This document shows, one piece after another, positions 12,466 to 64,000 of a DNA stretch of 64,000 nucleotides (the first letter of the stretch is position 1; every line of letters starts with the position of its first letter). The stretch is from assembly GCA_016789445.1 (NCBI GenBank), contig JAEUQT010000002.1, positions 72,052 through 136,051 of the forward strand, in the 5' to 3' direction. The translations under genes and the position numbers were made by a program. The DNA comes from a bacterium (GTDB taxonomy: Bacteria; Patescibacteriota; Minisyncoccia; Phycocordibacterales; UBA2100). The notes under the pieces were generated by a model that saw only the letters and a program-made list of their open reading frames with translations, ran no database searches and was not told where the DNA came from.

Positions 12466-12481
12466 AATCAGATTACGAAAC

Positions 12482-44460: not shown

Positions 44461-44635
44461 CTAAAGCCGCAATTAATGCCGCTATGGAAAACGAGTGAGT
44501 AAGCGGCATCGCGACTATCAAAGACGAGTTTCTATGCATTCTATTGAGTGAGTGCGACGTTCATTTCATAATTTGACGTCAACTATAAAACGTTGTGCAT
44601 GTAGATACTGGACGTATCCGGCTTACTGAGAGGGG

Positions 44636-45776: not shown

Positions 45777-46346
45777 TTAGTGAGCCAGGGTATAACGCGT
45801 CGATCGGCCCTTACCGGTGCGGAAGAGTTTGCCGCGAGAGATGAGTATCCTTGCATACCGTGATGCGGTGGAATCGGAGACTGCTAGGAGTTTCTGAATG
45901 CCGTCGTTCGTGATGTGCGTATGCGAAGCAAGATGACTCAGAATCTTCTCCAGATCATTCTCGCGCTTACGGGTACGATGTTCCAGAGATTTAAGTCGAC
46001 CCGCACTTCCTTGAAATCTTTTCTCAACAACTGCGTGAGATTGATCGGCGGGTGTATCACTTCCAGAATTATGCGCGGTAGTAGTTCCGGAATCTGAGGA
46101 AGTCTTCGTGCTATTTGATTCAACTGCAGACACGTGGGTGGTATCAGCGCTGGTTTCCGTTTTCCTAGCTGCATCAGCAGGCACTTCATCGCTATTGGTT
46201 GGAGAAGTATTTGATACGGATATTGGAGTCTCAATATCGACCGGCAGGGCGCTCGTTGGTACGGGAGTAGTCACGTGGTCTTGAACGCGCTGTTCGGAGG
46301 CTACTTGAAGTTCAGTAGGTTCAGGAGTTGGGGTTGGGTCTGTCAT
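45777..46346 (-). CDS. Small protein with Thr/Pro/Ser-rich N-terminus and C-terminal winged-helix HTH
   Basis: 189 aa. The C-terminal ITNDGIQKLLAVSDSTASRYARILISRGKLFRTGKGRSTRY resembles a wHTH DNA-binding domain. It lies 136 bp downstream of the giant protein gene on the same strand. Confidence 0.4.
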   Translation of the reverse strand: MTDPTPTPEPTELQVASEQRVQDHVTTPVPTSALPVDIETPISVSNTSPTNSDEVPADAARKTETSADTTHVSAVESNSTKTSSDSGTTTAHNSGSDTPADQSHAVVEKRFQGSAGRLKSLEHRTRKRENDLEKILSHLASHTHITNDGIQKLLAVSDSTASRYARILISRGKLFRTGKGRSTRYTLAH

Positions 46347-46482: not shown

Positions 46483-49400
46483 TCATACTTCTTCTGGTGA
46501 TGGTTCCGGAGTGGATTCTGGCTCAGGATTTTCATCATTCGGCGGTGTTTCAGACTCTTCGGGAGCATCTTCTGGTGCCTCGGTCTCAGGTGAATCCTCT
46601 GGTTCCGGAGCGGGTTCCTCACTTCCAGTCTCTTCAGGTGGTGTCTCTGATTGGGGTTCATCAGGTGGCTCTTCCGGTGTTGATGCCGGGGTCGCACCGC
46701 TTTGGTTCAGCAGCTGCTGAAGCTCTGCCTTCGTCACGCAAAGATCTTCAAGGCAGAGTTTGTTTGCGTTCACGGTATCCGCATACACGTTCTCCGCACG
46801 CAATGTCTTCGTGAATATCTCCGTGATGCCGTTCTGTGCATCCGCGAGCCAATTGGTCATGCGCGCGAAGATGTTTGCAAAGACAGGTGTAGAAGTTGCG
46901 GTGCTTGTTGCATTCAGAAGATCTCGCAGTGCATTCTTCTCTTCGATCACGAGTGTGTATTCGTTTTCGACGAAGACTTCAATCTCACCAGAGACTGAGG
47001 TTGCCTCAAGTGCGCGTGCAACGGTATACGAAGATGTCGTCGCCTTGGTACCGATACCCGGCACGGATGAGATCGTGAGACGATCGCCGACTGCGATCGG
47101 ACCGCCTTCCATGTTCACTTTAAGTGGTACGCGTCCCTTAAGAGCGACGGCACGACCGTCCTTGATCTCCTGGCCGAGCAAGAGGCCTGGCTTGGTAGAT
47201 AGGACTCCCAATCCTTCTTCGCCGTGCTTCGCGCGGCGGATCGTGGAGGTGGAGTTCTCAAGGAGGGAGACGATCTCTCCTGTGAGGAGAGTTGAATCGA
47301 TGGCGCGGTAGTTTTCGGCAAGGTCGATGTCGCTGATGGTCGCGGTGGTTGCGTAGATGGTGCCGGCGGTGGTGCCACAAGAGCCGGTGCTGCGCACACA
47401 GAGAGAACCTTGGACGGAGAGAGTGGAGACTGGGGTGGTGGTGCCGACTCCCACATTGCCACTCTGGGTAAGGCTCATGATCTCGTTTGCAGTATCACTG
47501 AAGAATCTCAAACGATCATCAGATACCAGGTTATCAATGATCCACTTCCTAGCACCGCTCTCGTAGATCTCCATTCCACTGTTAGCAGAACCGTCGAGGC
47601 GAACGTATGCGTTCGTGCCGCTTACATGCAACTGGCGAAGCGGTGTAGTGGTTCCTATACCGACGTTGCCAGAGGAGTCGATAAAGAGTCGGGTGCTCGT
47701 CGCGCCAGCGGTGTCTGAAGTGAAGAGGCTGAGGCTGCCACCGAAGTTGTTGGAATGGCGTCCTGCATCGATACCGGCAATCTCTTTCTGTGTCGATGGA
47801 TTGCCATCGGTGTTGAAGAAGGAGAGGCCTGCAGCTGTGCCGTTGGTGGTGTTCTGGCGTCCCCATACCGCGATGCGGTTTTTTGCATTGGTGCCGTTAC
47901 CAGAGACGGAGAGCATATACGTTGGCGTCGTGGTGCCGATGCCGAGTCGTTGGTTTGTGGTATCCCAGAACAGCGAAGAAGAAGTGCCGATTGAGCCTGT
48001 GTCGTTTCCGAAAAGGATGGAACCAGAGCTGATCGAGGTAAGGCCGGTTCCGCCATTCGCAACGCCGAGAGCGGATGTCAGGCTGAGTGATTGTGCGGAC
48101 AGTGAGCCCGTAACGGATAGTGCACCTGCATTCTGAGCAGAGACCTCTCCCCATTGCAGGGAGACACCGCGCAACATGATGCCTGCGGGCGAGCTCGGGC
48201 TCATCAGAATGCGGTATTTCATTGAGGTGCCTGATGGTTGTCCCGAAAGATCCACTGCCGTGTCGCCATACAATGTCGAGCCATCCTCAAGTGTAGAAAG
48301 GGCTTGTAGGGTGGTGGTCGACCAGGTGGTGCCTCCATCGCGAGACACGGCTGCGGCGATGTGGGTGTTGAGCGTAAATGCAGCCGTCGAAGTGCCGGCA
48401 AAGAAGAATTTTGCTGTGCTCGGTGATGACGATGCGGTAAAGGTGTTTGAGATAAGGCGAGACGCTCCTGTTCCAGAGACGGTAGTGTAGCGGACGATCA
48501 CAATGCCGTCCGCGCCGGTACCGCCGGTGACTACTGTTGATGCGCCACCGCCCGCGCCTCGTCCGCCGCTTCCCGGCGTTGCTCCGTTGGTTCCGTTGTT
48601 ATTGCCGCTGCGCGTACCACCGGCACCACCACTGGAATACGTGACCGATGTTCCGGAGATGGTGTTTGCAATACCGGTACCACCAGCACCGCCTGCTTCG
48701 ACGCCGTTACCCCCGCCAGAACCGCCTGCACCCGCAGCGCCTCCTCCACCTGCGCCTCCACCGCCGCTTCCTCCGGAGCCTGCATTTCCACCGCTGGATC
48801 CGACGCCAGGAGAAACTGCCGTCGAAGCTCCTCCTGTTGTAGCTGAGGAGTCATCTCCCGCACCGCCACCACTACCGCCGGGTCTACCGTTGTTGAATGG
48901 TTCGGCACCTGCGCCACCGCCACGAGCAGTGAGGCCGAATGCGGTCGTCGTTGCGCCATCGGTATTCGAACCACCGCCGGTGCCGACAGTTATTGCGTAG
49001 GATGTCGCAGGCGTGACGTTGAAGGAACTAATAGCAACATATTCGCCGGCTCCACCACCTCCCGAGCCACGCACGCTTGCGGTGGCATTACCACCGCCAC
49101 CGCCACCGCCGCCAACAACGAGGACTTGTACCGTGCCGACGGCACCGGAATAGAAGGTTCCGTTCGACGTGAATGTGCGGATGCTGTCGCCGCCGGAAGA
49201 GGATGAACTGCCGCCGCTCGGAGCGGCGTCGGGTACCAATGCGATCATGCCTGCGCTTGTCGCGATGCCGCTTGAATTTACGAGATCGATTCCTGAATCA
49301 TCAGCAATCGATGCAGAGCCAAAAGAATCAGCCACGCCGTTGCTAAGGCTGACCCATTTCGCGCTGCTCGATGCGATCTGAAGTGCATTTACGGAAGTAT

Positions 49401-52400
49401 TGATCGCTGTAGTGAGATCACCGGCAACCAGTCCTGATGTGTTTGCCGAAAGAACGCAGGTATTGAGGATCGAGAAGCAACCTCCCGCGAGGTCGATTCC
49501 GTTTGAGAAGGTGCTTGTTCCGGAGCCGTTGAGGTATATGGAGTTCGTGCCAACCTTCAATTGACCTTGCACATTGAGGTTCTGATACAGGGTCGAAGTC
49601 CCGGCTTGGAAGTTCGCAATACTGCCGATTGAAAATACTGAGCCTGGTGAAGTGGTTCCGATGCCCACGTTGCCGCCGAAATACGCATTTCCTGTGGTCG
49701 TTGCGCCACCATTGATGGTGAGTCCTGTCGCCTGGCCGCCTGCACCGATCGTCGACGAAGCATATGCGGTGAGGCCGCCATTGAACTGCGTGAGTGTCGA
49801 AGTCGCATTGCCATTAAGAAGGAACGGATACGCGAACGATGAGCCGCTGCTGAGGCATACGCCACCGACCGCATAACAGCCCGAAGTGATGTTCATGCCT
49901 ACGTTGCTTGTCGAGGTCGCTGAGCCGGAGATGTTGAGGCCGGAGAGGGTGGTAGTGCCGAATCCAGTAGCGGATACAGAGAGGAACTTGGTCGCGGTCG
50001 AGCTCGAAGCAATCTCAAACACCGGATTCGTCTGCCCAGCATCACCCTGCAGTGCGAGCTTTGCCCACGGCGTGGTCGTACCGATACCAACCTTATCGGC
50101 GTTATCCAACAAGAACGACTGCGTGCCATCATTCGCCCAACCGGCCGCGTTGTTGCCGTTGACGGGTGCGATCATGGCACCGGTGAAGTAGGTGATAGCC
50201 GTGTTCCCGCCGTCGACGATTTGGTTTGAGGCGGTCTGTGTGTCGCCGTATACCTCGAAGTAGTCGGTCGTACCGTTTGCTTCGACGATGGTAGTTATCA
50301 CCACATTCACGGTGCTTGCTTCCGCGGTCTCGCTCGGCAATATTGCGTTCGCAGCTGCAACTCCGTTCTTATAGATCATCGCGAATCCATGATCGTCAGC
50401 GCTGAGGGCACCATATTGAAGATTAGCTGTAAGGATGTATTTGCCCGGCACGGTCGGCATGAAGCGGTTGCCGCTAAAGTTGTTATTTGTATCGAAGCTC
50501 TCAACGTCCCAGGTGATAAGCGTAGGGCTCGCGCCGACGTTCGTCTGATCAGCGGTTTTGCTCACATGAAATGACGGCCCCGTCGTCGCGGTCGTCACCC
50601 CCTGCCACGTCCCGCCGGCGTTCTTGAATTCGATGACACCGCCGTTGTCACGGAAGCCATAGCCGTCCGTACCGGTCGTGGTGCCGAAGTTCGTGTAGCG
50701 ATCCGTGCCGTTGAAAAGGGTATCGCCGAAGACGGTGAGTTTTGCATTCGGTGTTGAGGTGCCGAGTCCCATATCGCCATTGGAATTGACGAGCAGACGA
50801 GTGCTTTTCGCGCGATTATCCGAAAGAGTAAATGATCCATTATTGGCAAATGCGAGCCAATCTCCTGCAGTGCCAGTAGTGTCATTGAGTCTCAAAGACG
50901 CATTGTCTCCTTCGATAGCGAGACTTCGCGCGGAACATCCGGTACATGCAACAGGCGTGGTTGTTCCGATGCCGATGTTTCCGTTTGTTGCGATAAACAA
51001 GCTCGACGTACCAATCGCCGTATTCGTGCCGCTGAAGTAGGCGACTTGGCCGGTGGTGCCAGTGAGCGAGGCGCTTCCACCACCGACGCACGTGCCGTTT
51101 ACTGCATAGCAGCCGCTCGTGATGTTCATGCCTACGTTCGAGGTAGAAGTCGCAGAACCGGAAATATTCAAACCAGAAAGAGTGGTGGTGCCGAAACCGG
51201 TACCAGATACCGAGAGGAACTTGGTCGCGGTCGAGCTCGAAGCAATCTCAAACACCGGATTCGTCTGCCCAGCATCACCCTGCAGTGCGAGCTTCGCCCA
51301 CGGCGTGGTCGTGCCGATGCCAACCTTATCCGCATTGTCCAAAAGGAACGACTGCGTACCATCATTTGCCCAGCCTGCGGCGTTGTTGCCGTTCACGGGC
51401 GCGATCATGGCGCCTGAGAAGTTGGTGAGAATCGCTGTGCCGTCGACAACCTCCGATCCTGCGGTGGCGTGGCTGACGTAGATTTCAACGTAGTCGGTCG
51501 AACCGTTCATGTCGATTATCTCGCTTATGGAGCTAGTGAGGCGTTGTGCGGCAGCGACATCGGGATAGTTATAGACCTGTGCGACTACTGCGCCGTTCTT
51601 ATAGATCATGATCGATGCGTTCCCCCCGGCATCGATGGTATTCGCCCACCATGCCTGCGCGCGGATGAGGTATTTGCCTGGCACTGTTGGCGTGAATCGA
51701 TTCGACGCGAAATTGTTGTTAGTGTCGAACGTTTCGGTACTCCAAGTGAGAAGTGTGGCTCCGCCGGCGGCAATCGTCTGATCCGAACCGTTCTTATGCA
51801 CACTGAACGACGGCCCCGTCGTCGCGGTCGTCACCCCCTGCCACGTCCCGCCGGCGTTCTTGAATTCGATGACACCGCCGTTGTCACGGAAGCCGTAACC
51901 GCTTGATCCAGTAGTGGTGCCGAAGTTCGCGTAGCGATCCGTGCCGTTGAAGAGGGTATCGCCGAAGACGGTGAGCGCAGCTATTGGGGTTGTGGTACCG
52001 ATACCGACGAACCCGTTGGTGCCCGGAGAAAGAATCACATCACCGGTGCCGAAGGTGGTGCCAATAGCGACATTGCCGTTGGTGCCATCGTAGAGCGTGA
52101 GGAAGCCGTTCGCGTTTCGAGAGCTATTGTATGCGCGGAGATTTGTGGTGCCACCTGCGCCGATCTCCATGTCGCCCCAAACGTTGAATTTTGCTACGGG
52201 AGTTGTTGTGCCCACACCGACGCGGCCGTTCGTGTCTATGAACAAACTCGACGTACCAATCGCCGTATTCGTGCCGCTGAAGTAGGCGAGCTGACCTTGA
52301 GTACCTGAGAGCGATGCAGAACCACCGCCGATGCAGGTGCCGTTTATGGCGTAGCAGCCACCGGAAAGATTGATACCGCCCGTCGATGAGAAGGTCGAAG

Positions 52401-55400
52401 TGGCAGTCGAGAAGTTGATGCCGTTCGTGTTGCCGATAGAGAAAAGTGAGCCCGGTGTCGAGGTGCTAATACCGACATTTCCGTTACCGCGAACGACGAA
52501 TGTGTTATCGGTCGAGGCGGTGCGGAGGCCGAGGAAGTCATTGCTGGTGCTGCTGTCGAGATCCGTCTCGAACGTGTAGCGATTTGAGCCATCCGATGCG
52601 CCGAAGATAAGACGAGCCTCGTCTGCTCCTTCGGTGCCGCCGATCTCGAGCTTGCCGCTCGGAGATGCGACTCCGATACCGACGTTGCTCGCGACATAGA
52701 GTGAGCCGGTTGTTGTTGCACCGCCGGAGATGGTGAGGCCACCGGTCTGCGTACCGTCACCAATGGTCGACGATGCATACGCCGTGAGTCCGCCGTTGAA
52801 GCCGAGCAGGGTTGAAGTCGCATTCGATGGGAACGGATACGCAAAGTTCTGGTAGTCGGTGCCAGGTGTCGCAACGGAGACGACGCCGTTTGCTGCTTTC
52901 AAAACTCCGCTCAAATTGCCTGAGAGAGTGGTCTGGCCGGATACCACCAGCGCACTTGTCGATGCAACACCGTTAGCTTGTGTGAATGCAGTCGAGCCCA
53001 AAGCAGCAGTCGGCGCACTCACCGATTCCGTGAACGAGCTGAACGTGAAGGTAGAAGCGGCTCCAAGCTGCTCGATATTGATAGTCGCAGTTCCTACGGT
53101 CGAACCTAATGTTCGACGAATGCGGAAGTCAGCCACTTGATTTGTAATACGCACATCAAGAGCAAAATCGTTTCCGACATAGGAACCAGTATCTGAAATC
53201 GGGAGCGCCAATTGCCACGCGCCACTTGTCTGTGCATATTTGAGCGGCAACGCATATTGTTTTGAGACCGAGAAGCTCGATGCAGGCACCGTAATGCTTA
53301 TGTAGAGATTGTGGGCACCATTGGTGATCGTGGTGCTTGCGATACTAATTGTGTCATTGATCGTTGTGGGCACTGCGCGCGTGACGCTGAAGCGCTTCTG
53401 AGCAGATGCCGACGTTTCTGAGAAAAGATAGTCTCTTGCAGTCACATTGCCACTTACGGTTGTTGAACCGAAAAAGGCATTTGTCGAAGATGCATAACTT
53501 GAGGAGAAGAGCGTCGAGGACGCGTTCGCGAAGGTCTGGAGTGCGGTGAAGGTGTTTGCGCTGTACGTCTTCGGGATTGTCGTCGAGGAGTGGGCTAAGT
53601 AGATGGCAGACGTCGTCGAGAAGAAATCACGAGTGGTCTGCCAGTAGTTGGCTGATGTCGTGGAGAATCCGAGACCGAGCGACGACCAGTAATTCGCGCT
53701 GGTCGTCGAGAAGCTGTTCGCGAGATAGTAGCTACCTTCAAGGCCATCAAACGTGCCGGTCCAATCACCGGCAGTGGTTGCGATGTAGTCGGTGCCAGGA
53801 ACCGCCGTCAAAACCGCGCCCGTGCCATTGCCCTTGAGGAGTCCGGTGAGCGTCGTCGAGCCGGTGCCGCCGTTGGGTACGCTGAGCGCCGCACCGAGAT
53901 TCAGTGAGCCGAAGTATCCGACGGTCGAGGATGCATAGGTGCTCGAGAAGAGCGTGGTCGATGCGTTCGAGAATGTTTGTAAGCCGGTATACGTATTGGC
54001 GGTATAGGTCTTCGGGATTGTCGTCGATGAGTGGACGAAGTACGTCGCAGATGTCGTTGAGAAGAAGTTATTGACTGACTTCCAGTAGTCGTTCGAGGTG
54101 GTAGAGAAGGCGAGGCCGATCGAGGAGAAGTACGAGGCTGAGGTAGTCGAGAAGAAGTTGCGCTGGTCCTTCCAGGCGTCGGCGCTGGTCGTTGAGAACG
54201 CATTGCCTTGATTCTGCGCGAGGAAATACGAGGCAGACGTGGTGGAGAAGAAATCACGCTGCGTCTTCCAATAATCAGCACTCGTCGTCGAGAACGAGGT
54301 GTCGGTGAACGTCGGCCATGCCTGACGACAATCTCCTGAGATGCAGAGGGAATTCGTGCTGAGTGCCGTCGTGGATGCGTACGGGAATACGGATGCCGCG
54401 GACGAGGTGGCGGTGAAGCGCGGCGCAGTCACGTTGCCATAGCTCGTCATAGCGCCGCGGAAGAGGGAGTTTCCGGCGATTTCGAGGATAGTTCCTACGG
54501 TAGTCGTCGCACTGCTACCGATGATGACGACATCCGTCGGGTCCGCAGGGTAGATGGCCAAGTCATCCGTCGTAGAAGCAAAGAAGCTCGCACCACCGCC
54601 TCCACCACCGGTGAGGTCGGTGCTCCATGTAAGATTGCCGCTGACCATCTTCAGTACTTGGCCGTTCGAGCCATTGGTAAGCGTCGAGGCGATACCATCG
54701 CTTGTCTGCAGAAGGCCGGTGCCAGTACCGAAGCCGAAGGAGCCGCTCACATACATATTAGTAGAGGTGGCATTGGTGCTGGTTGCGTCAGTCACCTCAA
54801 GTCCGTCGAAGGCCTGTGTGCCTGAGAAGGTGATCCCCGAGAGCGTGGAGCCGGATATGGAGGCACCGGAGATGGAGCCGCCCGTGAACGTCGAATCAGT
54901 GATATCGATATCGTCGAATCCGGCGCCTCCGATGCCGTCGGGGAAGCTGTCGACGATGCTCTCCGCCTGGCGATCGCCCCGGTACTCAGCAAGCTCGATG
55001 CGCCCGGTGAGGTAGTTCTCCATCGCATTGAGACGGCTATCCAACAGCTGCTCGGAAAGGCCCGAAGCAAGCACTCCGCCGGAGCCGACCGTCGGTTGGA
55101 TGTAGTTGGTGATGTTGTTCGTGATCTGGGTTGGGGCAGGTGCCTGAGCAACCGGCTGCGAACCACCGCGAACGTACACAACTGGCATCGGCTGCACGTC
55201 GTCACACCAGCCGGTGATGCTGCAGGCGATTGAAGTAATGCTGGTGTAGCTCGCGCGCGCGATCGATTCGATCGGCGAGAAGAAAGATGCAGCAGCAACC
55301 TGCTCGGCCGCAGAACCACGAAGCATGTTGGCGATCGGAGTGGAAAGCGCCGTAGTGTTTGCGATGAAAAGGAGAAGTACTGCACAGATGGAAGATATCG

Positions 55401-55833
55401 TGATGCGCGTGATCAGCATCGTCTGTGCCTTCTCGCGTGCCGCGTGAGCTTTTTCGGATGCACGCAAGATATGCAGCTGACGAGGTGCTACGTGTACAGG
55501 GGAGAGCGGCTGGAAGTTCTCATCGCGCACGACGACCGGCTCCGCAACACTCTTAAGCTCGCGTGAGAGGTTTTGGTGCCATGCCTCTTTCTTCGCCTCA
55601 TGCGCCTTGATAAAGGGGACCAAGGAATCAGCTTCAACGATCCACGTCTTACCCGAGCGTCGTCCACGAAGTTTTCCTTCGCGACAAAGGCGCGATACAT
55701 AATCCGGCGCGTACCCCAAAACATCTCCGGCTTCGCGTGCCGTCAGGTAGTGAACGCCGTCAATGTACAAGTTATTTTTCACACCGCGAAAGTGACGAAA
55801 TATGTTGCAACTATAACTTTTTTCGTCAGTCAC
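46483..55833 (-). CDS. Giant (3116 aa) membrane-anchored surface repeat protein with N-terminal excisionase-like HTH domain
   Basis: The N-terminus YLTAREAGDVLGYAPDYVSRLCREGKLRGRRSGKTWIVEADSL looks HTH_17/MerR-excisionase-like. It has a single TM helix (LITRITISSICAVLLLFIANTTAL). The huge extracytoplasmic part carries more than 25 FSTTSA-(D/N/S)Y(W/F) repeats, Gly-rich low-complexity tracts and a large internal duplication. The C-terminal tail is acidic and Pro/Glu-rich. Confidence 0.7.
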   Translation of the reverse strand: MTDEKSYSCNIFRHFRGVKNNLYIDGVHYLTAREAGDVLGYAPDYVSRLCREGKLRGRRSGKTWIVEADSLVPFIKAHEAKKEAWHQNLSRELKSVAEPVVVRDENFQPLSPVHVAPRQLHILRASEKAHAAREKAQTMLITRITISSICAVLLLFIANTTALSTPIANMLRGSAAEQVAAASFFSPIESIARASYTSITSIACSITGWCDDVQPMPVVYVRGGSQPVAQAPAPTQITNNITNYIQPTVGSGGVLASGLSEQLLDSRLNAMENYLTGRIELAEYRGDRQAESIVDSFPDGIGGAGFDDIDITDSTFTGGSISGASISGSTLSGITFSGTQAFDGLEVTDATSTNATSTNMYVSGSFGFGTGTGLLQTSDGIASTLTNGSNGQVLKMVSGNLTWSTDLTGGGGGGASFFASTTDDLAIYPADPTDVVIIGSSATTTVGTILEIAGNSLFRGAMTSYGNVTAPRFTATSSAASVFPYASTTALSTNSLCISGDCRQAWPTFTDTSFSTTSADYWKTQRDFFSTTSASYFLAQNQGNAFSTTSADAWKDQRNFFSTTSASYFSSIGLAFSTTSNDYWKSVNNFFSTTSATYFVHSSTTIPKTYTANTYTGLQTFSNASTTLFSSTYASSTVGYFGSLNLGAALSVPNGGTGSTTLTGLLKGNGTGAVLTAVPGTDYIATTAGDWTGTFDGLEGSYYLANSFSTTSANYWSSLGLGFSTTSANYWQTTRDFFSTTSAIYLAHSSTTIPKTYSANTFTALQTFANASSTLFSSSYASSTNAFFGSTTVSGNVTARDYLFSETSASAQKRFSVTRAVPTTINDTISIASTTITNGAHNLYISITVPASSFSVSKQYALPLKYAQTSGAWQLALPISDTGSYVGNDFALDVRITNQVADFRIRRTLGSTVGTATINIEQLGAASTFTFSSFTESVSAPTAALGSTAFTQANGVASTSALVVSGQTTLSGNLSGVLKAANGVVSVATPGTDYQNFAYPFPSNATSTLLGFNGGLTAYASSTIGDGTQTGGLTISGGATTTGSLYVASNVGIGVASPSGKLEIGGTEGADEARLIFGASDGSNRYTFETDLDSSTSNDFLGLRTASTDNTFVVRGNGNVGISTSTPGSLFSIGNTNGINFSTATSTFSSTGGINLSGGCYAINGTCIGGGSASLSGTQGQLAYFSGTNTAIGTSSLFIDTNGRVGVGTTTPVAKFNVWGDMEIGAGGTTNLRAYNSSRNANGFLTLYDGTNGNVAIGTTFGTGDVILSPGTNGFVGIGTTTPIAALTVFGDTLFNGTDRYANFGTTTGSSGYGFRDNGGVIEFKNAGGTWQGVTTATTGPSFSVHKNGSDQTIAAGGATLLTWSTETFDTNNNFASNRFTPTVPGKYLIRAQAWWANTIDAGGNASIMIYKNGAVVAQVYNYPDVAAAQRLTSSISEIIDMNGSTDYVEIYVSHATAGSEVVDGTAILTNFSGAMIAPVNGNNAAGWANDGTQSFLLDNADKVGIGTTTPWAKLALQGDAGQTNPVFEIASSSTATKFLSVSGTGFGTTTLSGLNISGSATSTSNVGMNITSGCYAVNGTCVGGGSASLTGTTGQVAYFSGTNTAIGTSSLFIATNGNIGIGTTTPVACTGCSARSLAIEGDNASLRLNDTTGTAGDWLAFANNGSFTLSDNRAKSTRLLVNSNGDMGLGTSTPNAKLTVFGDTLFNGTDRYTNFGTTTGTDGYGFRDNGGVIEFKNAGGTWQGVTTATTGPSFHVSKTADQTNVGASPTLITWDVESFDTNNNFSGNRFMPTVPGKYILTANLQYGALSADDHGFAMIYKNGVAAANAILPSETAEASTVNVVITTIVEANGTTDYFEVYGDTQTASNQIVDGGNTAITYFTGAMIAPVNGNNAAGWANDGTQSFLLDNADKVGIGTTTPWAKLALQGDAGQTNPVFEIASSSTATKFLSVSATGFGTTTLSGLNISGSATSTSNVGMNITSGCYAVGGVCLSSGSSFAYPFLLNGNATSTLTQFNGGLTAYASSTIGAGGQATGLTINGGATTTGNAYFGGNVGIGTTSPGSVFSIGSIANFQAGTSTLYQNLNVQGQLKVGTNSIYLNGSGTSTFSNGIDLAGGCFSILNTCVLSANTSGLVAGDLTTAINTSVNALQIASSSAKWVSLSNGVADSFGSASIADDSGIDLVNSSGIATSAGMIALVPDAAPSGGSSSSSGGDSIRTFTSNGTFYSGAVGTVQVLVVGGGGGGGGNATASVRGSGGGGAGEYVAISSFNVTPATSYAITVGTGGGSNTDGATTTAFGLTARGGGAGAEPFNNGRPGGSGGGAGDDSSATTGGASTAVSPGVGSSGGNAGSGGSGGGGAGGGGAAGAGGSGGGNGVEAGGAGGTGIANTISGTSVTYSSGGAGGTRSGNNNGTNGATPGSGGRGAGGGASTVVTGGTGADGIVIVRYTTVSGTGASRLISNTFTASSSPSTAKFFFAGTSTAAFTLNTHIAAAVSRDGGTTWSTTTLQALSTLEDGSTLYGDTAVDLSGQPSGTSMKYRILMSPSSPAGIMLRGVSLQWGEVSAQNAGALSVTGSLSAQSLSLTSALGVANGGTGLTSISSGSILFGNDTGSIGTSSSLFWDTTNQRLGIGTTTPTYMLSVSGNGTNAKNRIAVWGRQNTTNGTAAGLSFFNTDGNPSTQKEIAGIDAGRHSNNFGGSLSLFTSDTAGATSTRLFIDSSGNVGIGTTTPLRQLHVSGTNAYVRLDGSANSGMEIYESGARKWIIDNLVSDDRLRFFSDTANEIMSLTQSGNVGVGTTTPVSTLSVQGSLCVRSTGSCGTTAGTIYATTATISDIDLAENYRAIDSTLLTGEIVSLLENSTSTIRRAKHGEEGLGVLSTKPGLLLGQEIKDGRAVALKGRVPLKVNMEGGPIAVGDRLTISSVPGIGTKATTSSYTVARALEATSVSGEIEVFVENEYTLVIEEKNALRDLLNATSTATSTPVFANIFARMTNWLADAQNGITEIFTKTLRAENVYADTVNANKLCLEDLCVTKAELQQLLNQSGATPASTPEEPPDEPQSETPPEETGSEEPAPEPEDSPETEAPEDAPEESETPPNDENPEPESTPEPSPEEV
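49886..52351. repeat. Intragenic tandem duplication, two copies of about 1233 bp inside the giant gene
   Basis: The DNA at 49975-50200 matches 51208-51433 almost exactly, as does 50581-50760 vs 51811-51990, giving a period of 1233 bp. The protein segment ...NGNNAAGWANDGTQSFLLDNADKVGIGTTTPWAKLALQGDAGQTNPVFEIASSSTATKFLSVS... occurs twice. Confidence 0.6.
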
Positions 55834-56344: not shown

Positions 56345-57781
56345 ATGGCCTACACACCGACGATCGGAATGGAAGTACACGCAGAGCTGAAAACCGCGAC
56401 AAAGATGTTCTGCAATTCGAAGAACGATGCGCATGAGATGCGTCCGAATGTAAACATCTGTCCGGTGTGTCTCGCGCATCCGGGAACGCTTCCCGTCATC
56501 AATAAGGAAGCGGTGAAGCATGTGCTTCGTGTGGGCATCGCACTTGGCAGCGAGCTCGCTGATTACACCGAATTCGATCGCAAGAATTATTTCTATCCTG
56601 ATCTTCCGAAGGGATACCAGATAAGCCAATATGAATTTCCATTGGTTAGCGGCGGTACGCTCGCAGGCGTACAGATTACACGCATACACCTTGAAGAAGA
56701 CACGGCAAGCTCGGTGCACGACAGCCAAACGGGCGCTACACTCATAGACTTTAACCGCTCCAGCATGCCGCTCATGGAGTTGGTCACCGAGCCGGTTATC
56801 CATAGCGCGGAGGAAGCAGGGAAGTTCGGTCGTGAGCTGCAGCTCTTGCTGCGCTATCTCGGTGCATCTGATGCGGATATGGAGCAAGGACAGATGCGTC
56901 TCGAAGCGAACATTTCTCTTTCTGATACCGACAAGCTCGGTACGAAAGTGGAAGTAAAAAACATCAATTCATTCCGCGCGATGGAACGCGCAGTTGCATA
57001 CGAGATCAAGCGCCAGACCGAGCTTCTATCCAAAGGAGAGAAGGTGATACAAGAGACGCGTGGTTGGGATGATGTAAAACAGCAGACGTTCTCGCAGCGC
57101 GTAAAAGAAGTCGCCGCTGATTACCGCTACTTCCCGGATCCTGATCTCCCATCACTCAAGCTTTCAGAGATACCGGAATTCTCACGAGAGAATCTCGCAC
57201 AGACATTGCCTGAATTGCCCGACGCACGCCGAGCACGCTACGCGTCGTGGGGTATTAAGCCTGCAGATGCGGAGCAGTTCGTACAGTATCCGCGCATCGG
57301 ATCCTTCTTTGATGCGGTGGCAGCCACCAAAACAGGGGATGCAGCTTTCGCACAGCGTGCCGCCAACTATATTGCCAACGACTTAGTGAAGATAATCCGA
57401 GATACTGATTCGCGAGATTCAGAATTAAGCGCCGAGATACCGGTTTCTGTAGAGAATTTTGCCAAAATAATCGATCTCATCGGTGCAGGTAAGATATCTT
57501 CCCGTGTCGCCAAGGACCTCCTGCTTATGGTTATCGCTGAAAGGCGCGATCCTGAGTCCCTTGCCACAGAGAAGGGGCTCTTCCAGACCAGTTCTGCTGC
57601 TGATCTCGGGCCTACGATTGATGCAATTCTCACCGAGCATACATCCGTGGTTGCAGATTACAAGGGAGGAAAGGAAGCGGCACTGCAATTCCTCTTCGGA
57701 CAGGCAATGAAGGTTCTGAAGGGTGCTGCTGAGCCAGCTACGTTGCGTCAGGCGCTTATTGACGCCATCGCTAAGAAATAA
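56345..57781 (+). CDS. gatB: Asp-tRNA(Asn)/Glu-tRNA(Gln) amidotransferase subunit B
   Basis: 478 aa. The N-terminus YTPTIGMEVHAELKTATKMFC, the C4 Zn motif NVNICPVCLAHPGTLP, the GatB core and the C-terminal YqeY-like domain are all present. Confidence 0.9.
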   Translation: MAYTPTIGMEVHAELKTATKMFCNSKNDAHEMRPNVNICPVCLAHPGTLPVINKEAVKHVLRVGIALGSELADYTEFDRKNYFYPDLPKGYQISQYEFPLVSGGTLAGVQITRIHLEEDTASSVHDSQTGATLIDFNRSSMPLMELVTEPVIHSAEEAGKFGRELQLLLRYLGASDADMEQGQMRLEANISLSDTDKLGTKVEVKNINSFRAMERAVAYEIKRQTELLSKGEKVIQETRGWDDVKQQTFSQRVKEVAADYRYFPDPDLPSLKLSEIPEFSRENLAQTLPELPDARRARYASWGIKPADAEQFVQYPRIGSFFDAVAATKTGDAAFAQRAANYIANDLVKIIRDTDSRDSELSAEIPVSVENFAKIIDLIGAGKISSRVAKDLLLMVIAERRDPESLATEKGLFQTSSAADLGPTIDAILTEHTSVVADYKGGKEAALQFLFGQAMKVLKGAAEPATLRQALIDAIAKK

Positions 57782-57801: not shown

Positions 57802-58962
57802 TTGAAACACAAGGGGTTTTCCCCGATGTCTACTCTTGCAAACAGGCGAGAGGAGTATAATAGCTGCATGGCACAGGAGATTAATCTCGGAGGAACGATA
57901 TACATCTCGTCTAAGCATGCAGCCGAGAAGACCGGCTATACGCAGGACTACATCGGCCAGCTTGCCCGCGGCGGCTCCATCGAGGCGAAGCGTGTATCAG
58001 GTATGTGGTACATCCTTGAGGAATCCCTTCGGGCGTATAAGGAGAAAGCAGACCAGTTCGTCCCCACGCCTCCTGAGGGATTCACGAAGTCACCCGAAGC
58101 GGAAGTGGCAGTATCATTCGATGGTAAAGACTACATCTCGGCAAACCGAGCAGCGAAGATTACAGGATATAACCAGGACTATATCGGTCAGCTTGCCCGC
58201 AGTAATCAGATCCTCTCGCGGCAGGTCGGTAAGCGCTGGTATGTCGATCGAGAATCGCTCCTGAAGCATAAAGAGGAGAAGGACGCGCTTCTTGCTGCGG
58301 TACAGGTCGAATCTGTCGGTCTTGCGAAGCCAGAAGACCTCCCGCCGATCCAGGAGCCGGAACCTGCTCCCGTAGAGGAGGTGGTCGTCGAACAGGAGGT
58401 AACCCATTTCAGCTACGTTAAGGAAGAGGAAGCGCCTCTTATCCCGGAGTTTGAGACCGAGGAGCCAGAACCCATGCCGGAATTCCCGCGACGCAAAGTA
58501 GCTGAACCGGTCTTTCAGGAATATCGTGCCCCCGAGCCCGAACTGGCTAGATTTGAAGCCGTAGAATCGATAGAGGAAGCTCCGGTAGTCGGTGAGGAAA
58601 TCGCCCCGCAGACGCCACAAGAGCCCGTCATGGAGGAGGTCGTCATCCCGATCCGAGTCACGGACGAAGAGGCGATAGAGGAGGCGTATATCGAGGAGGA
58701 TGCGCCGGTACGTAAGGCGCGAAAGCCGGTAGGCGCCTTTAATTTCATCGCAATCTCGTCTCTCACGGTAGTTGCTGCTCTCGGGACGCTCGCCTACATC
58801 GGAAGCTCGCTTGGATTCCTCGATTTCGGTAGCGTCATGCCGCAGGGAGATGGCTCTCAGAATGCTTCTGCGGCCAATACTGTTGTAGAGAGCAATGCTG
58901 ACAAGGCAGGAGAGACGATCCGTGGATTCTTCTCGAAAGAGATAACGTATAAGCGTCAGTAA
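57802..58962 (+). CDS. Membrane protein with two tandem N-terminal excisionase-like HTH modules, acidic Pro/Glu linker and C-terminal TM helix
   Basis: The two modules are YISSKHAAEKTGYTQDYIGQLARGGSIEAKRVSGMWYILEESL and YISANRAAKITGYNQDYIGQLARSNQILSRQVGKRWYVDRESL. The TM helix is FNFIAISSLTVVAALGTLAYIGSSLGF. The start could also be the internal Met at MSTLANR. Confidence 0.5.
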   Translation: MKHKGFSPMSTLANRREEYNSCMAQEINLGGTIYISSKHAAEKTGYTQDYIGQLARGGSIEAKRVSGMWYILEESLRAYKEKADQFVPTPPEGFTKSPEAEVAVSFDGKDYISANRAAKITGYNQDYIGQLARSNQILSRQVGKRWYVDRESLLKHKEEKDALLAAVQVESVGLAKPEDLPPIQEPEPAPVEEVVVEQEVTHFSYVKEEEAPLIPEFETEEPEPMPEFPRRKVAEPVFQEYRAPEPELARFEAVESIEEAPVVGEEIAPQTPQEPVMEEVVIPIRVTDEEAIEEAYIEEDAPVRKARKPVGAFNFIAISSLTVVAALGTLAYIGSSLGFLDFGSVMPQGDGSQNASAANTVVESNADKAGETIRGFFSKEITYKRQ

Positions 58963-59069: not shown

Positions 59070-59780
59070 TTGCGAGCCTGCATGAAAAACGCAACCGACA
59101 TAGGTTCGTACATTCCGGCACGTGATGCCGCTCTTCGTGCGCGCCTGCATCCGGATTACATCGCACGCCTCGCGCGTCAGTCGAAGATCAAGGCAAAACG
59201 TGTCGGTCGCAAGTGGTATGTCGACGAATCCGCCCTCGAGAAATTCCTGAAAAGCCACTCGGAAGGGAAAGAAGAACGTCGCGAGAAATTGCGCGAGAAG
59301 CACAAGAAAGAATATCTTGAGCACGCACAGCCGCTTGCGCGCGTAGACGATACGATCGCGGATAACGTATCTCCACGCACACAGCATGCAGTCGTGACCA
59401 CGGTGAAGCACGCAAACCTCTGGGCGACTCCGGGCCTCAATGCACATGCGGTGACGTATGCGATGCACCCCGGAATCGACCTCTTCCATCGAGTCGTCGC
59501 TCTCGTTACGGCATTCGTTCTCGTCTTCGGCGCTTACGGACTCTTCGATAGGGAATTCGGCGCTGCAGCTGTTGACGCTCTTGCGTATTCTGCAAGCGGT
59601 ATCGTCGCATTTGCGGCTGTAACTATCGGTTTTTCGCCTGATTGTGCATCGGGAACCCAACGCATGGCGGCCGCAGCGCATCTCGCATTCCAGAATGCGC
59701 TCACCTCGATCGATAACGCGATGCCATCGGGACTTCCCGATACGTCACTCACCCCGCTCAGCGCAGCGTGCGCACACTGA
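59070..59780 (+). CDS. Membrane protein with N-terminal excisionase-like HTH module and two TM helices
   Basis: The HTH module is YIPARDAALRARLHPDYIARLARQSKIKAKRVGRKWYVDESALEKFL. The TM helices are VVALVTAFVLVFGAYGLF and GIVAFAAVTIGF. 236 aa. Confidence 0.45.
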   Translation: MRACMKNATDIGSYIPARDAALRARLHPDYIARLARQSKIKAKRVGRKWYVDESALEKFLKSHSEGKEERREKLREKHKKEYLEHAQPLARVDDTIADNVSPRTQHAVVTTVKHANLWATPGLNAHAVTYAMHPGIDLFHRVVALVTAFVLVFGAYGLFDREFGAAAVDALAYSASGIVAFAAVTIGFSPDCASGTQRMAAAAHLAFQNALTSIDNAMPSGLPDTSLTPLSAACAH

Positions 59781-60886: not shown

Positions 60887-63800
60887 ATGACAGAAATCAT
60901 TCACCATGGCATGCGGCTTGTTCCGTCGCGCGAATCCGCGCGACGCTTCAATATCACGAACGATTACATCGGTCGTTTGTGCAAACAGGGCAAAGTCTCG
61001 GGATCCCTCATCTCGGGTTCGTGGTACGTAAATGAAGAGTCGCTCCGAGATTTCTTGCTCAAAACAAATCGAGAGAAATATGAGCGCCGTGAAGCGTTGC
61101 GCGAGCAGCGTGCACATGCATACCGCGAAGCACAGGCGCGCCTGCTCGGAGATGCGATACCGGCCAAGCGTGCTGTGATTGCCGAGAAAAAAGTTGCGCC
61201 GCTTCCTCCGCGACCGCTCCGCATTCATCCGGCACCACGACGTGTACCGAAGACATTCACGATCTTCGCGCAGCGTGGTCTCGCGGTCATGTTTGCGGTC
61301 ATTGTTGTTGTAGGCGGTTTGCGATTCAGCGATGCGAGTGTATTCCAGGTTGCGCGTGAAGTACTTCCGGCTGCTGCGGCGATCAGTGGTCGCAATGATG
61401 TTTTTGCAAACGCGTCGCAAAGCGCAATCGCGAAATTCTTGGGCGCGAATCGTGATAACGAGTCGTACTGGATCTGGTATGAGACCAGTGGTGCGACATA
61501 CGATCAGCCGGAGATCTCTTCCGGTCTCGCAGGAAACGATTCGGTCATCGGCCGCGTGATCGATGCGATCACTCCGGGTAGTATTTCGGAAGCGATTCTT
61601 AATGCGCGTCTCGCCGCACTCGAATCACGATTGATGGCGCTCATCTCGATCGTTCCGCCGACAAACAGTGTGGCGCCGGTGTATCACTATTATGTAGACA
61701 ATAGTAGCGGCATCGGTGGCAGCGGATTTGATGACATCGACATCACGAATTCGACGTACACCGGCGGTACGATCACCGGTGCAACGATCACGGGTGGCAG
61801 TGTTACCGCAACAGAGTTTGATGGAGTACTTCCGGTTGCAAATGGTGGTACCGGAACTTCGACGTACGCAGTCGGAGACATTTTGTATGCAGATTCGCCA
61901 TCGACGCTTGGTCGACTCGCGCAAGGAACGAACGGACAAGTTCTTAAAGTTGTCGGAGGAAATCTCGTGTGGTCGCAAGATATCGCCGGTGGCGGAGGTT
62001 CTGGTGCATTCGCAACCACCTCTGATGATCTTGCGATCTACGTCGCTGATCCAAGTGATGTTGTGATCATCGGATCGAATGCGACATCAACCACCGGAAA
62101 TATTCTTGAAATCGCCGGAAATACTCTGATGCGCGGTGCGCTCACCGCATACAACACGATTACCGGGCCGATCTTTACCGCAACATCAACGACGGCAACT
62201 TCGACGATGCCGCGCCTCAATATCACCGGCTCCCTCGGTATCGGCAGCGACTATATAACTGATATCTCAGGGGATGGCCTCTCGGTCCAATCCGGGGCTC
62301 TAGCATTGGATAGAACAGGGGATTGGACGGGTACGTTTGATGGCTTGGAAGGCAGCTACTATCTCGCGAATTCCTTCTCAACGACCTCTGCGTCATATTT
62401 CATCTCGCAGCAGAATCTGAGCGGCTTTTCGACCACATCAGCGGATTACTGGAAGACGCAGCGTGATTTCTTCGCCACGACCTCCGTCGAATACTGGAAG
62501 TCCGTCAGTAACTTCTTCTCAACGACCTCCGCAGCGTATTTCCTTTCTGAAAATCAGGAAGAAGCGTTCTCGACGACGTCTGCGGCATACTTCTTGTCGC
62601 AGCAGAACGTAAGCGGCTTCTCAACGACGTCAGCGGATTTCTGGCAGACGCAGCGTAACTTCTTCTCCACTACTTCCACTGATTATTGGAAGAGTGTAAA
62701 TAATTTCTTCTCGACTACGTCGGCTGATTTCTGGAAGACCGCAAACAACTTCTTCTCGACATCTTCGGCGCAGTACTTCGTCAATTCCTCGACGACGATA
62801 CCGAAGACCTACACCGCGAATACCTTCACGGCACTGCAGACTTTCGGTAACGCATCATCATCGATCCTCTCCGCTGATACGTTCTGTCTCTCAAACGATT
62901 GCCGCACCTCATGGCCGAGTGCAGGCTCGTCGTTCGCATATCCATTCCCGAACGATGCGACCTCAACCACCATTACCTTCAATAACGGTATCGTGAGCGT
63001 AGGTTCTACTACTATCAATGGGAACGCGACGACGACCGGTATGCAGAGCGTCGGCAGCCTGTACATTAATGGAGAGCGCTTCACCGATCTCACCGGCTCT
63101 GGTCTCCTCAATACGGCAGGCGTCCTCTCGCTCGACACCTCCGGCAACTGGACCGGTACCTTCGACGGCCAAGAGGGAAGCTACTATCTTGCGAACTCGT
63201 TCTCGACGACCTCCGCCTCATACTTCTCCTCCATCGGCCTCGCGTGGTCCACGACCTCAGCGAACTACTATCTTTCGCAGAACGGCGCGCTCGGCTTCTC
63301 AACGACCTCGAATGACTACTGGATGTCGCAGCGTAACTTCTTCTCGACGACGTCTGCAAACTACTGGCAGACGACGAGGGACTTCTTCTCCACGACAAGT
63401 GCGGCGTACTTCCTCGGTCAGAACCAGGGCGCAGCCTTCTCCACCACTTCCGCCAACTACTGGGAATCCCAGCAGACCGCCCGCACTGCCGATGACCTTT
63501 CTAATAATAGTATCGAAGATCTCTCGGACGTCGCGGCGATGACCGAGAACTACGGCGATCTCCTCTATTGGAACGGCAGCAGCTGGGCAGACATCGCCAC
63601 CAGCTCGCTCGGCCTGGTGACCTCGAGCGAGCTTGGTGCCTACCTTTCGCTTGCTTCGTGGTACGCAACTACGACGGACGGTCTTGATGAAGGCTCTGCG
63701 AATCTCTATTTCACTAATGCGCGCGTCCAGAGCTACCTCGATACGGTCGGTAAGGGATACTTCTTCTCAACGACCAGTGCGGATGCCTGGAAGGATCAAC

Positions 63801-64000
63801 GTAACTTCTTCTCGACAACTTCGGCAGCGTACTTCTCGTCCGTCGGCCTCGCGTTCTCGACCACGTCAAACGATTACTGGGCATCGGTACGTAATTTCTT
63901 CTCGACGACCTCAGCGTCGTACTTCCTCTCACAGAACCAGGGTGCCGCGTTCTCATCGACCTCGGCAAACTACTTCATCCATTCGTCGACGACCGTGCCG
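60887..64000 (+). CDS. Second giant surface repeat protein (paralog of 46483-55833), 5' part only; continues beyond window
   Basis: ATG at 60887; I translated the frame through to 64000 by hand and found no stop (1038 codons). N-terminal HTH-like module (LVPSRESARRFNITNDYIGRLCKQGKVSGSLISGSWYVNEESLRDFL). TM helix (GLAVMFAVIVVVGGL). Then GFDDIDITNSTYTGGTITG..., TGTFDGLEGSYYLANSFSTTSASYF and many FSTTSA-Y(W/F) repeats, as in the minus-strand giant protein. It is not in the ORF track because it has no stop in the window. Confidence 0.6.
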   Translation, partial: MTEIIHHGMRLVPSRESARRFNITNDYIGRLCKQGKVSGSLISGSWYVNEESLRDFLLKTNREKYERREALREQRAHAYREAQARLLGDAIPAKRAVIAEKKVAPLPPRPLRIHPAPRRVPKTFTIFAQRGLAVMFAVIVVVGGLRFSDASVFQVAREVLPAAAAISGRNDVFANASQSAIAKFLGANRDNESYWIWYETSGATYDQPEISSGLAGNDSVIGRVIDAITPGSISEAILNARLAALESRLMALISIVPPTNSVAPVYHYYVDNSSGIGGSGFDDIDITNSTYTGGTITGATITGGSVTATEFDGVLPVANGGTGTSTYAVGDILYADSPSTLGRLAQGTNGQVLKVVGGNLVWSQDIAGGGGSGAFATTSDDLAIYVADPSDVVIIGSNATSTTGNILEIAGNTLMRGALTAYNTITGPIFTATSTTATSTMPRLNITGSLGIGSDYITDISGDGLSVQSGALALDRTGDWTGTFDGLEGSYYLANSFSTTSASYFISQQNLSGFSTTSADYWKTQRDFFATTSVEYWKSVSNFFSTTSAAYFLSENQEEAFSTTSAAYFLSQQNVSGFSTTSADFWQTQRNFFSTTSTDYWKSVNNFFSTTSADFWKTANNFFSTSSAQYFVNSSTTIPKTYTANTFTALQTFGNASSSILSADTFCLSNDCRTSWPSAGSSFAYPFPNDATSTTITFNNGIVSVGSTTINGNATTTGMQSVGSLYINGERFTDLTGSGLLNTAGVLSLDTSGNWTGTFDGQEGSYYLANSFSTTSASYFSSIGLAWSTTSANYYLSQNGALGFSTTSNDYWMSQRNFFSTTSANYWQTTRDFFSTTSAAYFLGQNQGAAFSTTSANYWESQQTARTADDLSNNSIEDLSDVAAMTENYGDLLYWNGSSWADIATSSLGLVTSSELGAYLSLASWYATTTDGLDEGSANLYFTNARVQSYLDTVGKGYFFSTTSADAWKDQRNFFSTTSAAYFSSVGLAFSTTSNDYWASVRNFFSTTSASYFLSQNQGAAFSSTSANYFIHSSTTVP

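Follow-up and report, generated by a model that had tools for sequence, protein, structure and literature searches.

A giant membrane-anchored protein with phage-tail-fibre-type modules encoded in a Patescibacteria genome

Introduction

Mosaic adhesive trimeric (MAT) fibres are cell-encoded, phage-like fibres found on the surface of Bdellovibrio bacteriovorus (Bd2133, Bd3182 and Bd2439), a bacterium that attacks other bacteria; their tips, including TNF-like ones, are swappable, and their hallmark is a signal peptide followed by a conserved, β-rich N-terminal domain of ~130 amino acids (aa) (Caulton et al. 2024, PMC10769870). The MAT family is the closest described system to the subject of this study, a giant protein (hereafter, the giant) encoded within a 64,000-nucleotide (nt) stretch of a genome of the Patescibacteriota (Minisyncoccia; Phycocordibacterales; UBA2100; assembly GCA_016789445.1, contig JAEUQT010000002.1, positions 72,052 to 136,051), which works alike, yet is not a member of that family. 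This whole stretch is referred to below as the window, and all coordinates are positions within it. We consider it probable that the giant is a chromosomal, membrane-anchored homotrimeric surface fibre of Patescibacteria, assembled from a phage/MAT module set and binding a host or another surface.

The likeness to MAT fibres is broad. Both are cell-encoded, long β-helix fibres with GIGT-type loops (the giant has sequence matches to the solved MAT fibre parts 8OND and 8OJN), both are built from swappable modules, TNF/C1q-like ones included, both occur as several paralogs per genome and in both cases the bacterium makes its living on other bacteria; a C-terminal autoprocessing chaperone, putative in the giant, is present in part of the family. 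Unlike MAT proteins, the giant possesses no cleavable signal peptide, but instead a helix-turn-helix (HTH) domain of the HTH_17 family and a transmembrane (TM) anchor at aa 141-163. The ~130-aa N-terminal domain is not evident in it, the MAT domain itself having neither a model nor a solved structure with which to compare. Furthermore, the giant has three times the length, carries its C1q heads internally and in tandem rather than at the end, and has a putative chaperone that looks G2/phi29-like, with no S74 domain bearing a C-terminal SDxxxK; it also contains a Gly_rich_2 domain and FSTTSA arrays. Phage tail fibres and spikes (the phi29 gp12 pre-neck appendage with its Peptidase_G2, and the C1q fibres of Caudovirales) share with the giant their fibre modules and C1q-fold heads, and the DLAENY motif of the giant aligns weakly with the gp12 cleavage site, whereas the giant is membrane-anchored and chromosomal, has housekeeping neighbours and no virion gene set, and its chaperone match lies below the curated threshold. 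Giant adhesins (RTX adhesins, SiiE, Giant1-5 of Apilactobacillus) are likewise very large, extracellular, repetitive and modular, and the giant is the largest gene locally. Those adhesins, however, consist of Ig-like/BIg or similar monomeric domains in series and are exported by type I secretion systems or anchored by sortase, whereas the giant combines trimer-type fibre modules with an N-terminal signal anchor.

Cultivated Patescibacteria are known for their epibiotic lifestyle. To our knowledge, little has been learned of how members of this group recognise and hold their hosts, apart from type IV pili and a few adhesins without names. Surface proteins are abundantly encoded in Patescibacteria genomes, and in one cultivated species adhesins are essential (PMC11665869, PMC10633639). 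In the literature we found no description of giant fibres, HTH-TM fusions or C1q domains in Patescibacteria. The giant gene points to cell-anchored fibres with phage/MAT modules and diversified C1q-type heads in these bacteria, and it provides concrete candidates for host recognition in an uncultivated lineage.

Results and discussion

Architecture of the giant protein

The original prediction, made from the DNA letters without database searches, described a 3116-aa protein with a lone N-proximal TM helix. Both features were confirmed: the longest open reading frame (ORF) encodes 3116 aa, and hydropathy analysis detected no second TM segment. The GTG codon at position 55782 is the likelier start, since homologs open with MKKDLYIDG, aligned at residue 18, and the resulting product is identical to NCBI MBL8158400.1 ('hypothetical protein JNK62_02625 [bacterium]', from a 326-kb contig of a metagenome-assembled genome). 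Residue numbers nevertheless follow the 3116-aa ORF throughout. Scans of the whole protein against Pfam, NCBIfam and PHROGs gave little; the module map was therefore derived from scans of ten segments against Pfam, PHROGs and PDB, and homologs were sought in a database of 5.8 billion proteins with three separate segments. The giant is a mosaic of about ten different modules and does not consist mainly of FSTTSA repeats:

46483..55833 (-), giant gene, longest ORF, 3116 aa
46483..55782 (-), giant gene from the probable GTG start, 3099 aa
55606..55749 (-), N-terminal HTH_17 (excisionase/MerR-type) domain, aa 29-76, predicted cytoplasmic (Pfam PF12728)
55345..55413 (-), single TM helix, aa ~141-163 (only segment above threshold in a Kyte-Doolittle scan)
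54817..54918 (-), pentapeptide-like β-helix turns GFDDIDITDSTFTGGSISGASISGSTLSG, aa 306-339 (weak match to Pfam Pentapeptide_3, E 0.01)
54019..54294 (-), FSTTSA array 1, six units, aa 514-605, followed by the conserved cap HSSTTIPKTYTANTYTGLQTF (motif scan)
53578..53712 (-), FSTTSA array 2, three units, aa 708-752, preceded by GDWTGTFDGLEGSYYLANS and followed by the same cap (motif scan)
51163..52407 (-), tandem unit 1, aa 1143-1557, GIGTTTP β-helix turns and C1q/TNF-like head (self-blastn, codon alignment)
51394-51819 (-), C1q/TNF-like head of unit 1, aa ~1339-1480
49876..51162 (-), tandem unit 2, aa 1558-1986, same layout as unit 1 (self-blastn, codon alignment)
50161-50583 (-), C1q/TNF-like head of unit 2, aa ~1751-1891
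48487..49167 (-), glycine-rich domain Gly_rich_2, aa ~2223-2449 (PF21722; phrog_2295, E 7e-34)
47344..48024 (-), distal tail-fibre/MAT-like segment with three GIGTTTP turns, aa ~2604-2830 (PHROG and PDB 8OJN)
46744..47337 (-), putative C-terminal intramolecular chaperone/autocleavage domain of the phi29 gp12, Peptidase_G2 type, from ~aa 2833 (weak PF11962 match)
46486..46698 (-), acidic Pro/Glu-rich C-terminal tail, aa 3046-3116 (composition)

The N-terminal side of the TM helix is rich in K/R residues, which suggests an N-in/C-out orientation; the long C-terminal part of the protein should therefore be extracellular. The HTH region also matches phrog_6401 ('DNA binding protein', E 8e-7), and the pentapeptide-like turns are retained in a paralog encoded near the end of the window, as judged from a pairwise alignment. 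At the opposite end of the protein, the final 86 aa comprise 27 D/E, 20 P and a single K/R, in agreement with the acidic Pro/Glu tail originally noted. The more general proposal that the protein is TM-anchored, largely extracellular and adhesin-like is also supported, given that the modules assigned to fibre, C1q head and putative chaperone all belong to the receptor-binding-fibre type.

Two old tandem units with C1q/TNF-like heads

A tandem repeat with a 1.2-kb periodicity had been predicted in the middle of the gene, and it is present there with a spacing of 1233-1245 nt; self-blastn of the giant gene aligned 916 nt that are 75% identical (E 3e-165), much more than chance would produce. The units are, however, not nearly identical, as had been claimed: in a codon alignment they share 67.3% of nucleotides and 64.5% of amino acids, and the Nei-Gojobori estimates of synonymous and nonsynonymous divergence (dS ~1.06, dN ~0.30) place the synonymous sites near saturation. 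A recent duplication, actively expanding by unequal recombination, is refuted by these values. The 1.23-kb repeat is an old, diverged internal duplication of a 'stalk + C1q head' cassette. Neither is the designation as a contingency locus borne out. Such a locus would call for a simple-sequence tract or for near-identical (>95%) tandem units, those of the giant being 67% identical in DNA, and neither the giant gene nor its upstream region contains a homopolymer of at least 7 nt or a simple sequence repeat (SSR) array; the absence of simple-sequence tracts from the gene leaves nothing to mark it as such a locus. The record should accordingly be corrected, the locus not being a recently expanding contingency gene.

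Divergence between the units is distributed as a mosaic. The best-matching blocks are 86-88% identical at the nucleotide level, whereas identity in the C1q-like head falls to 18-60% in 40-residue windows. A stalk block of ~100 aa closes each unit (aa 1476-1578 versus 1887-1989) and differs by 1 amino-acid change as against 37 synonymous codon changes, indicating strong purifying selection over a long time. The diverged heads of the two units may thus bind different ligands, with the stalk kept near-constant at the protein level. The units also contain two exact tracts, and only two, of 86 nt (50573-50658/51809-51894) and 83 nt (49979-50061/51212-51294), which were estimated to be too long for chance at 86% local identity and therefore suggest occasional short gene-conversion events. 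Metagenome scans for the unit junction and for unit 1 returned no match, so that the duplicated region is without an independent assembly. An assembly artefact is nevertheless unlikely, because false duplicates would be identical to each other and not 67% identical. The tandem units are bracketed by a third internal repeat (aa 996-1054, 52672-52845, versus aa 1999-2059, 49657-49836; 69% nt identity), with the motif (S/N)FAYPF...NGGLTAYASSTIG...GGLTI(S/N)GGATTTG, which is also found in the paralog and in proteins of viral contigs.

The nature of the heads was addressed by structure prediction with AlphaFold2 (AF2), for which residues 1295-1480 of unit 1 were aligned with 86 homologs. The resulting model is all-β and confident (pLDDT 89.1, pTM 0.80). 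In Foldseek searches against PDB it was matched with a probability of 1.00 to the jelly-rolls of Caprin-2 C1q, C1QL1-3, EDA and collagen X NC1; E-values range from 1e-7 to 1e-5, and TM-scores (target) to Caprin-2, C1QL and EDA are 0.75-0.82. The central spike knob of phage phi812 was matched as well (E ~1e-7, probability 1.00). According to this model, the core of the duplicated units is a ten-strand C1q/TNF jelly-roll. Searches with the unit-1 head retrieved 3537 homologous proteins at E<=1e-3, and its best matches among viral models are annotated 'C1q domain containing protein [uncultured Caudovirales phage]' (25-36% identity). The Pfam C1q profile PF00386 did not match either unit at E<=1, and among the head homologs a precomputed PF00386 assignment exists for a single one (P0186). 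The tandem arrangement is peculiar to the giant: among 281 family proteins/ORFs it alone carries two heads; another protein has just one, and a further, partial protein breaks off within a head match.

Fibre segments, glycine-rich domain and C-terminus

Turns of the G-[IV]-G-T-T-T-P type, eleven in number, are spread over the whole fibre. Phmmer searches against PDB matched aa 1483-1705 to 8OND (Bd2133; E 4.1e-8) and aa 2705-2757 to 8OJN (E 1.9e-4), with a weak match of the C-terminal piece to 8OL4 (E 0.045). Several segments of the giant also match tail-fibre PHROG families; for the distal segment these are phrog_18345 (E 6e-12) and phrog_9942 (E 2e-9). The tract of G8 and GGAG motifs that had been read as low-complexity sequence is indeed present, and it corresponds to a Gly_rich_2 domain (PF21722, E 1.3e-13, 51.9 bits versus a cut-off of 24.3), the match spanning 224 of the 226 profile positions.

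A putative gp12-type intramolecular chaperone at the C-terminus is regarded as likely, although weakly supported. The motif DLAENY occurs once in the giant and is found again in 15 relatives, at a distance of 280-620 aa from the C-terminus (motif scan). The weak alignment with gp12 begins at residue 1 of the released autochaperone (3GQH) and at residue 691 of the full-length protein (6QZ9). A chaperone of the S74 type was considered and rejected, as the sole SDxxxK of the giant lies at aa 1671, in the middle of the fibre, and none is found in the C-terminal part.

FSTTSA arrays

The giant had been described as dominated by more than 25 copies of the FSTTSA repeat, 16-20 aa apart. Our count is 9 FSTTS[A/N] units, split between an array of six and one of three and repeating every 15 or 17 aa; together, the arrays make up 4.4% of the protein. 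The figure of more than 25 copies fits better the second gene of this type, which had been predicted from position 60887 on the opposite strand with the same N-terminal architecture and the same repeat, and which our alignment corroborates (36% identity over 916 aa):

60887..64000 (+), paralog, incomplete at the end of the window: HTH, TM helix and β-helix, then three FSTTSA arrays (9+6+5 units) (alignment)

Its 1038-aa fragment thus contains 20 units. Compared inside each gene or across giant and paralog, FSTTSA units share 62-80% of their DNA sequence; the two genes have no exact match in common longer than 24 nt, this one being located at nt 1563 in each. In array 1, Tandem Repeats Finder reported a 96-nt period (76%), with unit DNA identities of 62-75%. 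Both arrays of the giant end in the conserved cap HSSTTIPKTYTANTFTxLQTF; the GDWTGTFDG/cap portion of the array 2 region was also matched on IMG/VR contigs.

The FSTTSA repeat of 15/17 aa is undescribed and almost confined to Patescibacteria. No Pfam, NCBIfam or PHROG model matches it, and a sequence comparison with PDB gave no solved structure similar to the arrays (best E 0.55). The AF2 monomer of the FSTTSA region, although of low confidence, hints at one short helix per unit; no fold is claimed. When 1.84 billion representative proteins were scanned in full by HMMER, using an array of the paralog as query, 369 proteins were matched at E<=1e-3, which makes a small family of 369 clusters, and 57 at E<=1e-30, many of them 1,500-5,700 aa long and with up to 16 matched stretches each. 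A set of 280 FSTTSA proteins holds 1991 motifs, in arrays of 1-23 units. Two unit types can be distinguished, a 15-mer (F-S-T-T-S-A-D-Y-W-K-S-x-x-N-F) and a 17-mer (F-S-T-T-S-A-(S/A)-Y-F-L-S-Q-N-Q-G-A-A). The family members are highly mosaic, and the number of units per array varies among paralogs and relatives. As for the family proteins with an intact start, 91 possess an ordinary signal peptide/anchor and 21-24 an HTH domain followed by a TM helix.

The motif FSTTSADYW was also found on 12 IMG/VR contigs (L086-L097), sometimes as a 45-nt tandem, in large signal-peptide proteins (for example L093, 810-4667; L090, 9543-13262; L096, 5142-5258). Tape-measure-like and head-tail-adaptor-like genes lie near the FSTTSA gene of L093, and a collagen-like tail-fibre gene adjoins that of L090. 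These contigs, classed as viral, may represent phages of Patescibacteria or misclassified genome fragments. Since the arrays occur there near phage-tail-like genes, the FSTTSA array is probably a fibre-shaft module shared with phages. A separate group of small secreted FSTTSA proteins of 350-600 aa (P0044, P0047, P0050, P0052, P0058, P0072, P0073, P0076 and P0089) combines a signal peptide with 2-6 units that begin near residue 75 and with a C-terminal end conserved as ...Y(V/I)(K/D)IG(T/N)PASSPT..(I/V)SCT..., with no Pfam match.

A cluster of HTH-TM genes

The combination of an HTH_17 domain with a TM helix is not restricted to the giant and its paralog, but extends to two genes located between them:

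57802..58962 (+), two HTH_17 subfamily copies, an acidic/Pro linker and one TM helix near the C-terminus (hidden Markov model (HMM), hydropathy)
59070..59780 (+), HTH_17 subfamily domain followed by TM segment(s) (HMM, hydropathy)

Taken together, four clustered genes (the giant, 57802-58962, 59070-59780 and the paralog) hold five copies of one HTH_17 subfamily domain, followed by a TM helix, and the rest of the window has none. A single subfamily HMM recognises every copy, with E-values between 1e-20 and 1e-32 (E 2.8e-32 for that of the giant), and the two clustered neighbours score 39.5 and 30.7 bits against HTH_17 PF12728. The sequence suggests that a cytoplasmic DNA-binding fold positioned ahead of the membrane anchor of a fibre could couple contact to gene regulation. 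We found no earlier description of a recurrent cytoplasmic HTH_17 domain before a membrane anchor, and it is an unexplained feature of these proteins.

Proposed function and alternative explanations

The giant is probably a genuine surface protein of an ultrasmall bacterium of the Patescibacteria/candidate phyla radiation, built of phage-tail-fibre-type modules and used to bind other cells. Its HTH_17 domain would stay in the cytoplasm, with a single signal-anchor helix holding the chain and about 2,950 residues being exported, as its predicted topology implies. Three chains would form a homotrimer, given that trimerisation is obligatory for C1q/TNF heads, MAT-type β-helices and C-terminal intramolecular chaperones. 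The phi29-gp12-like domain at the C-terminus may nucleate trimerisation and then cleave itself near D2837, shedding the acidic tail, as the weak gp12 alignment would have it. The candidate ligand-binding parts are the two C1q-like heads, the Gly-rich domain and the β-sandwich following it, and the membrane-proximal FSTTSA arrays might serve as a spacer or shaft of variable unit number. Attachment to a host cell or to some other surface would be the likeliest function, and it would fit the epibiotic life of cultivated Patescibacteria. The modules, the single TM helix, the C1q fold and the taxonomic setting are shown by the analyses, while trimerisation, cleavage, surface display and host binding are what we infer.

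Several points weigh against this interpretation. The giant scores 26.4 bits (E 8.5e-6) against HTH_17 PF12728, 0.6 bits short of the cut-off of 27, and 20.5 bits (E 3.4e-4) against Peptidase_G2 PF11962, under the 25-bit cut-off; the alignment of DLAENY (aa 2837) with the gp12 cleavage site DFAEYF (S691|D692) is weak (E 0.36-0.5). Trimerisation is deduced from the types of module. C1q heads are usually located at fibre ends, so that their internal position and tandem arrangement in the giant are unusual. The AF2 monomer of the FSTTSA region (aa 470-830, alignment of 48 sequences) reached a pLDDT of 51.5 and a pTM of 0.21. Beyond aa ~523 the giant is without independent assembly support.

Four other explanations were weighed against a host- or surface-binding fibre. 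The giant could be a structural protein of the envelope, an S-layer or wall-spanning scaffold, with the FSTTSA arrays binding the wall glycopolymers of the cell itself in the manner of cell-wall-binding repeats. Such a role would agree with the membrane-proximal position of the arrays (aa 514-752), their richness in aromatic residues and their short and long unit types, with the large glycan-synthesis cluster that adjoins the locus, and with the presence of the same arrays in small secreted proteins. The folds that can be assigned are, however, those of receptor-binding fibres (MAT β-helix, C1q heads, tail-fibre chaperone), the Pfam scans matched no S-layer or cell-wall-binding family, and the weak AF2 model features short helices rather than the β-hairpins of known wall-binding repeats, and we regard this role as unlikely. 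An alternative that concerns the N-terminus is that the giant acts as a contact-sensing, membrane-tethered regulator, with the fibre as sensor and HTH_17 as output, the latter either remaining tethered (ToxR/CadC-like) or being released by proteolysis upon binding of, or tension on, the fibre. HTH_17 is a DNA-binding fold according to its Pfam and PHROG names, its five pairings with a TM helix are confined, within the window, to four clustered genes, and it heads the 21-24 FSTTSA-family proteins with an intact start mentioned above. On the other hand, the fibre evidently works without HTH in the 91 members that have an ordinary signal peptide/anchor, no protease site, partner or target DNA is known, and we found no paper on HTH-TM fibre fusions. 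Sensing is compatible with a surface fibre and does not exclude it, but as an explanation of the giant it appears to us rather improbable. We would likewise give a low likelihood to the broader conjecture that HTH_17-TM proteins are functional one-piece host-contact sensors, in which attachment to or traction by a host cell would be transmitted directly to DNA binding in the cytoplasm, and form a four-gene host-contact regulon, and that the FSTTSA array is a new trimeric shaft fold of Patescibacteria and phages.

The other two explanations fare worse. Many tail-fibre PHROG matches, and the 12 IMG/VR contigs with FSTTSADYW arrays, one of them by tape-measure-like and head-tail-adaptor-like genes, might indicate a tail-fibre gene of a prophage or tailocin rather than a cellular surface protein. 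This is very unlikely in view of the N-terminal cytoplasmic domain and TM anchor, of the flanks, where gatB, secA and HTH-TM genes are located and none of the 10 scanned neighbours is a phage structural, packaging or lysis gene, and of the length of 3,100 aa and the second copy nearby, which fit a chromosomal family of giant proteins found across Patescibacteria genomes. Least credible of all is the contingency locus of the original prediction, in which a recent, near-identical 1.23-kb unit would change in copy number by unequal recombination and thereby switch adhesin properties. The tandem duplication is real, the exact 86- and 83-nt tracts lie within its units, and the numbers of FSTTSA units differ among paralogs and relatives; yet the units share 67% of their DNA with a dS of ~1, the gene is devoid of homopolymer/SSR tracts, repeat DNA is at most ~80% identical with no exact paralog match longer than 24 nt, and the protein cluster at 90% identity is single-membered, no allele of another copy number being recorded. 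The preferred interpretation therefore remains that of a membrane-anchored surface fibre.

Distribution, assembly support and genomic neighbourhood

Homologs of the N-terminal 512 aa were retrieved from Minisyncoccia, Paceibacteria, Kaiserbacteria and Parcubacteria, under the annotation 'helix-turn-helix domain-containing protein, partial', and a scan of 185,579 species genomes with a single protein yielded 76 loci, almost all of them in Patescibacteria. The same strain is present in four other public samples (SRR17233805, SRR32830374, SRR31850043 and JGI 3300028486; 99.7-99.96% identity). The corresponding Logan contigs (L001-L003) all stop at ~aa 523 (~54265), inside the first FSTTSA unit, at the 24-nt match between the giant and the paralog, and a JGI contig (L004) ends within the first ~155 residues of the giant gene. 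Breakage of contigs at the first FSTTSA unit accounts for the label 'partial' on nearly all relatives in the databases.

The giant lies among housekeeping genes, with gatB at 56345-57781, across an intergenic region of 510 bp, and secA at 39761-42313, and no phage structural, packaging or lysis gene was detected among the 10 neighbours scanned. Directly downstream of it, 45777-46346 (-) encodes a 189-aa protein rich in Ser/Thr/Asp, with a basic C-terminal end and no family match. An IS200-like Y1 transposase domain (PF01797, E 7e-7), also just downstream of the giant region, is encoded at 44595-45323 (+) in a low-GC stretch (46.5%). At 42314-43813 (-) the window encodes a 499-aa protein with a signal-peptide-like start and no family match.

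The first part of the window (1-39000) is occupied by a glycan-biosynthesis cluster, which comprises several glycosyltransferases (GT4/GT1/GT2), C-methyltransferases (12242-13750 and 28179-29447), a Wzt-like ABC ATPase (16547-17797), genes of the PMT_2 family (protein-mannosyltransferase-like; 6480-9179 and 13737-15713 (-)) and a Wzy_C (O-antigen ligase)-TPR protein (36516-38699). The two PMT_2 genes and the Wzy_C-TPR gene lend support from genomic context to the O-glycosylation of Ser/Thr-rich parts that the original prediction had considered plausible. The products of this cluster could be candidates for O-glycosylation of the Ser/Thr-rich giant proteins.

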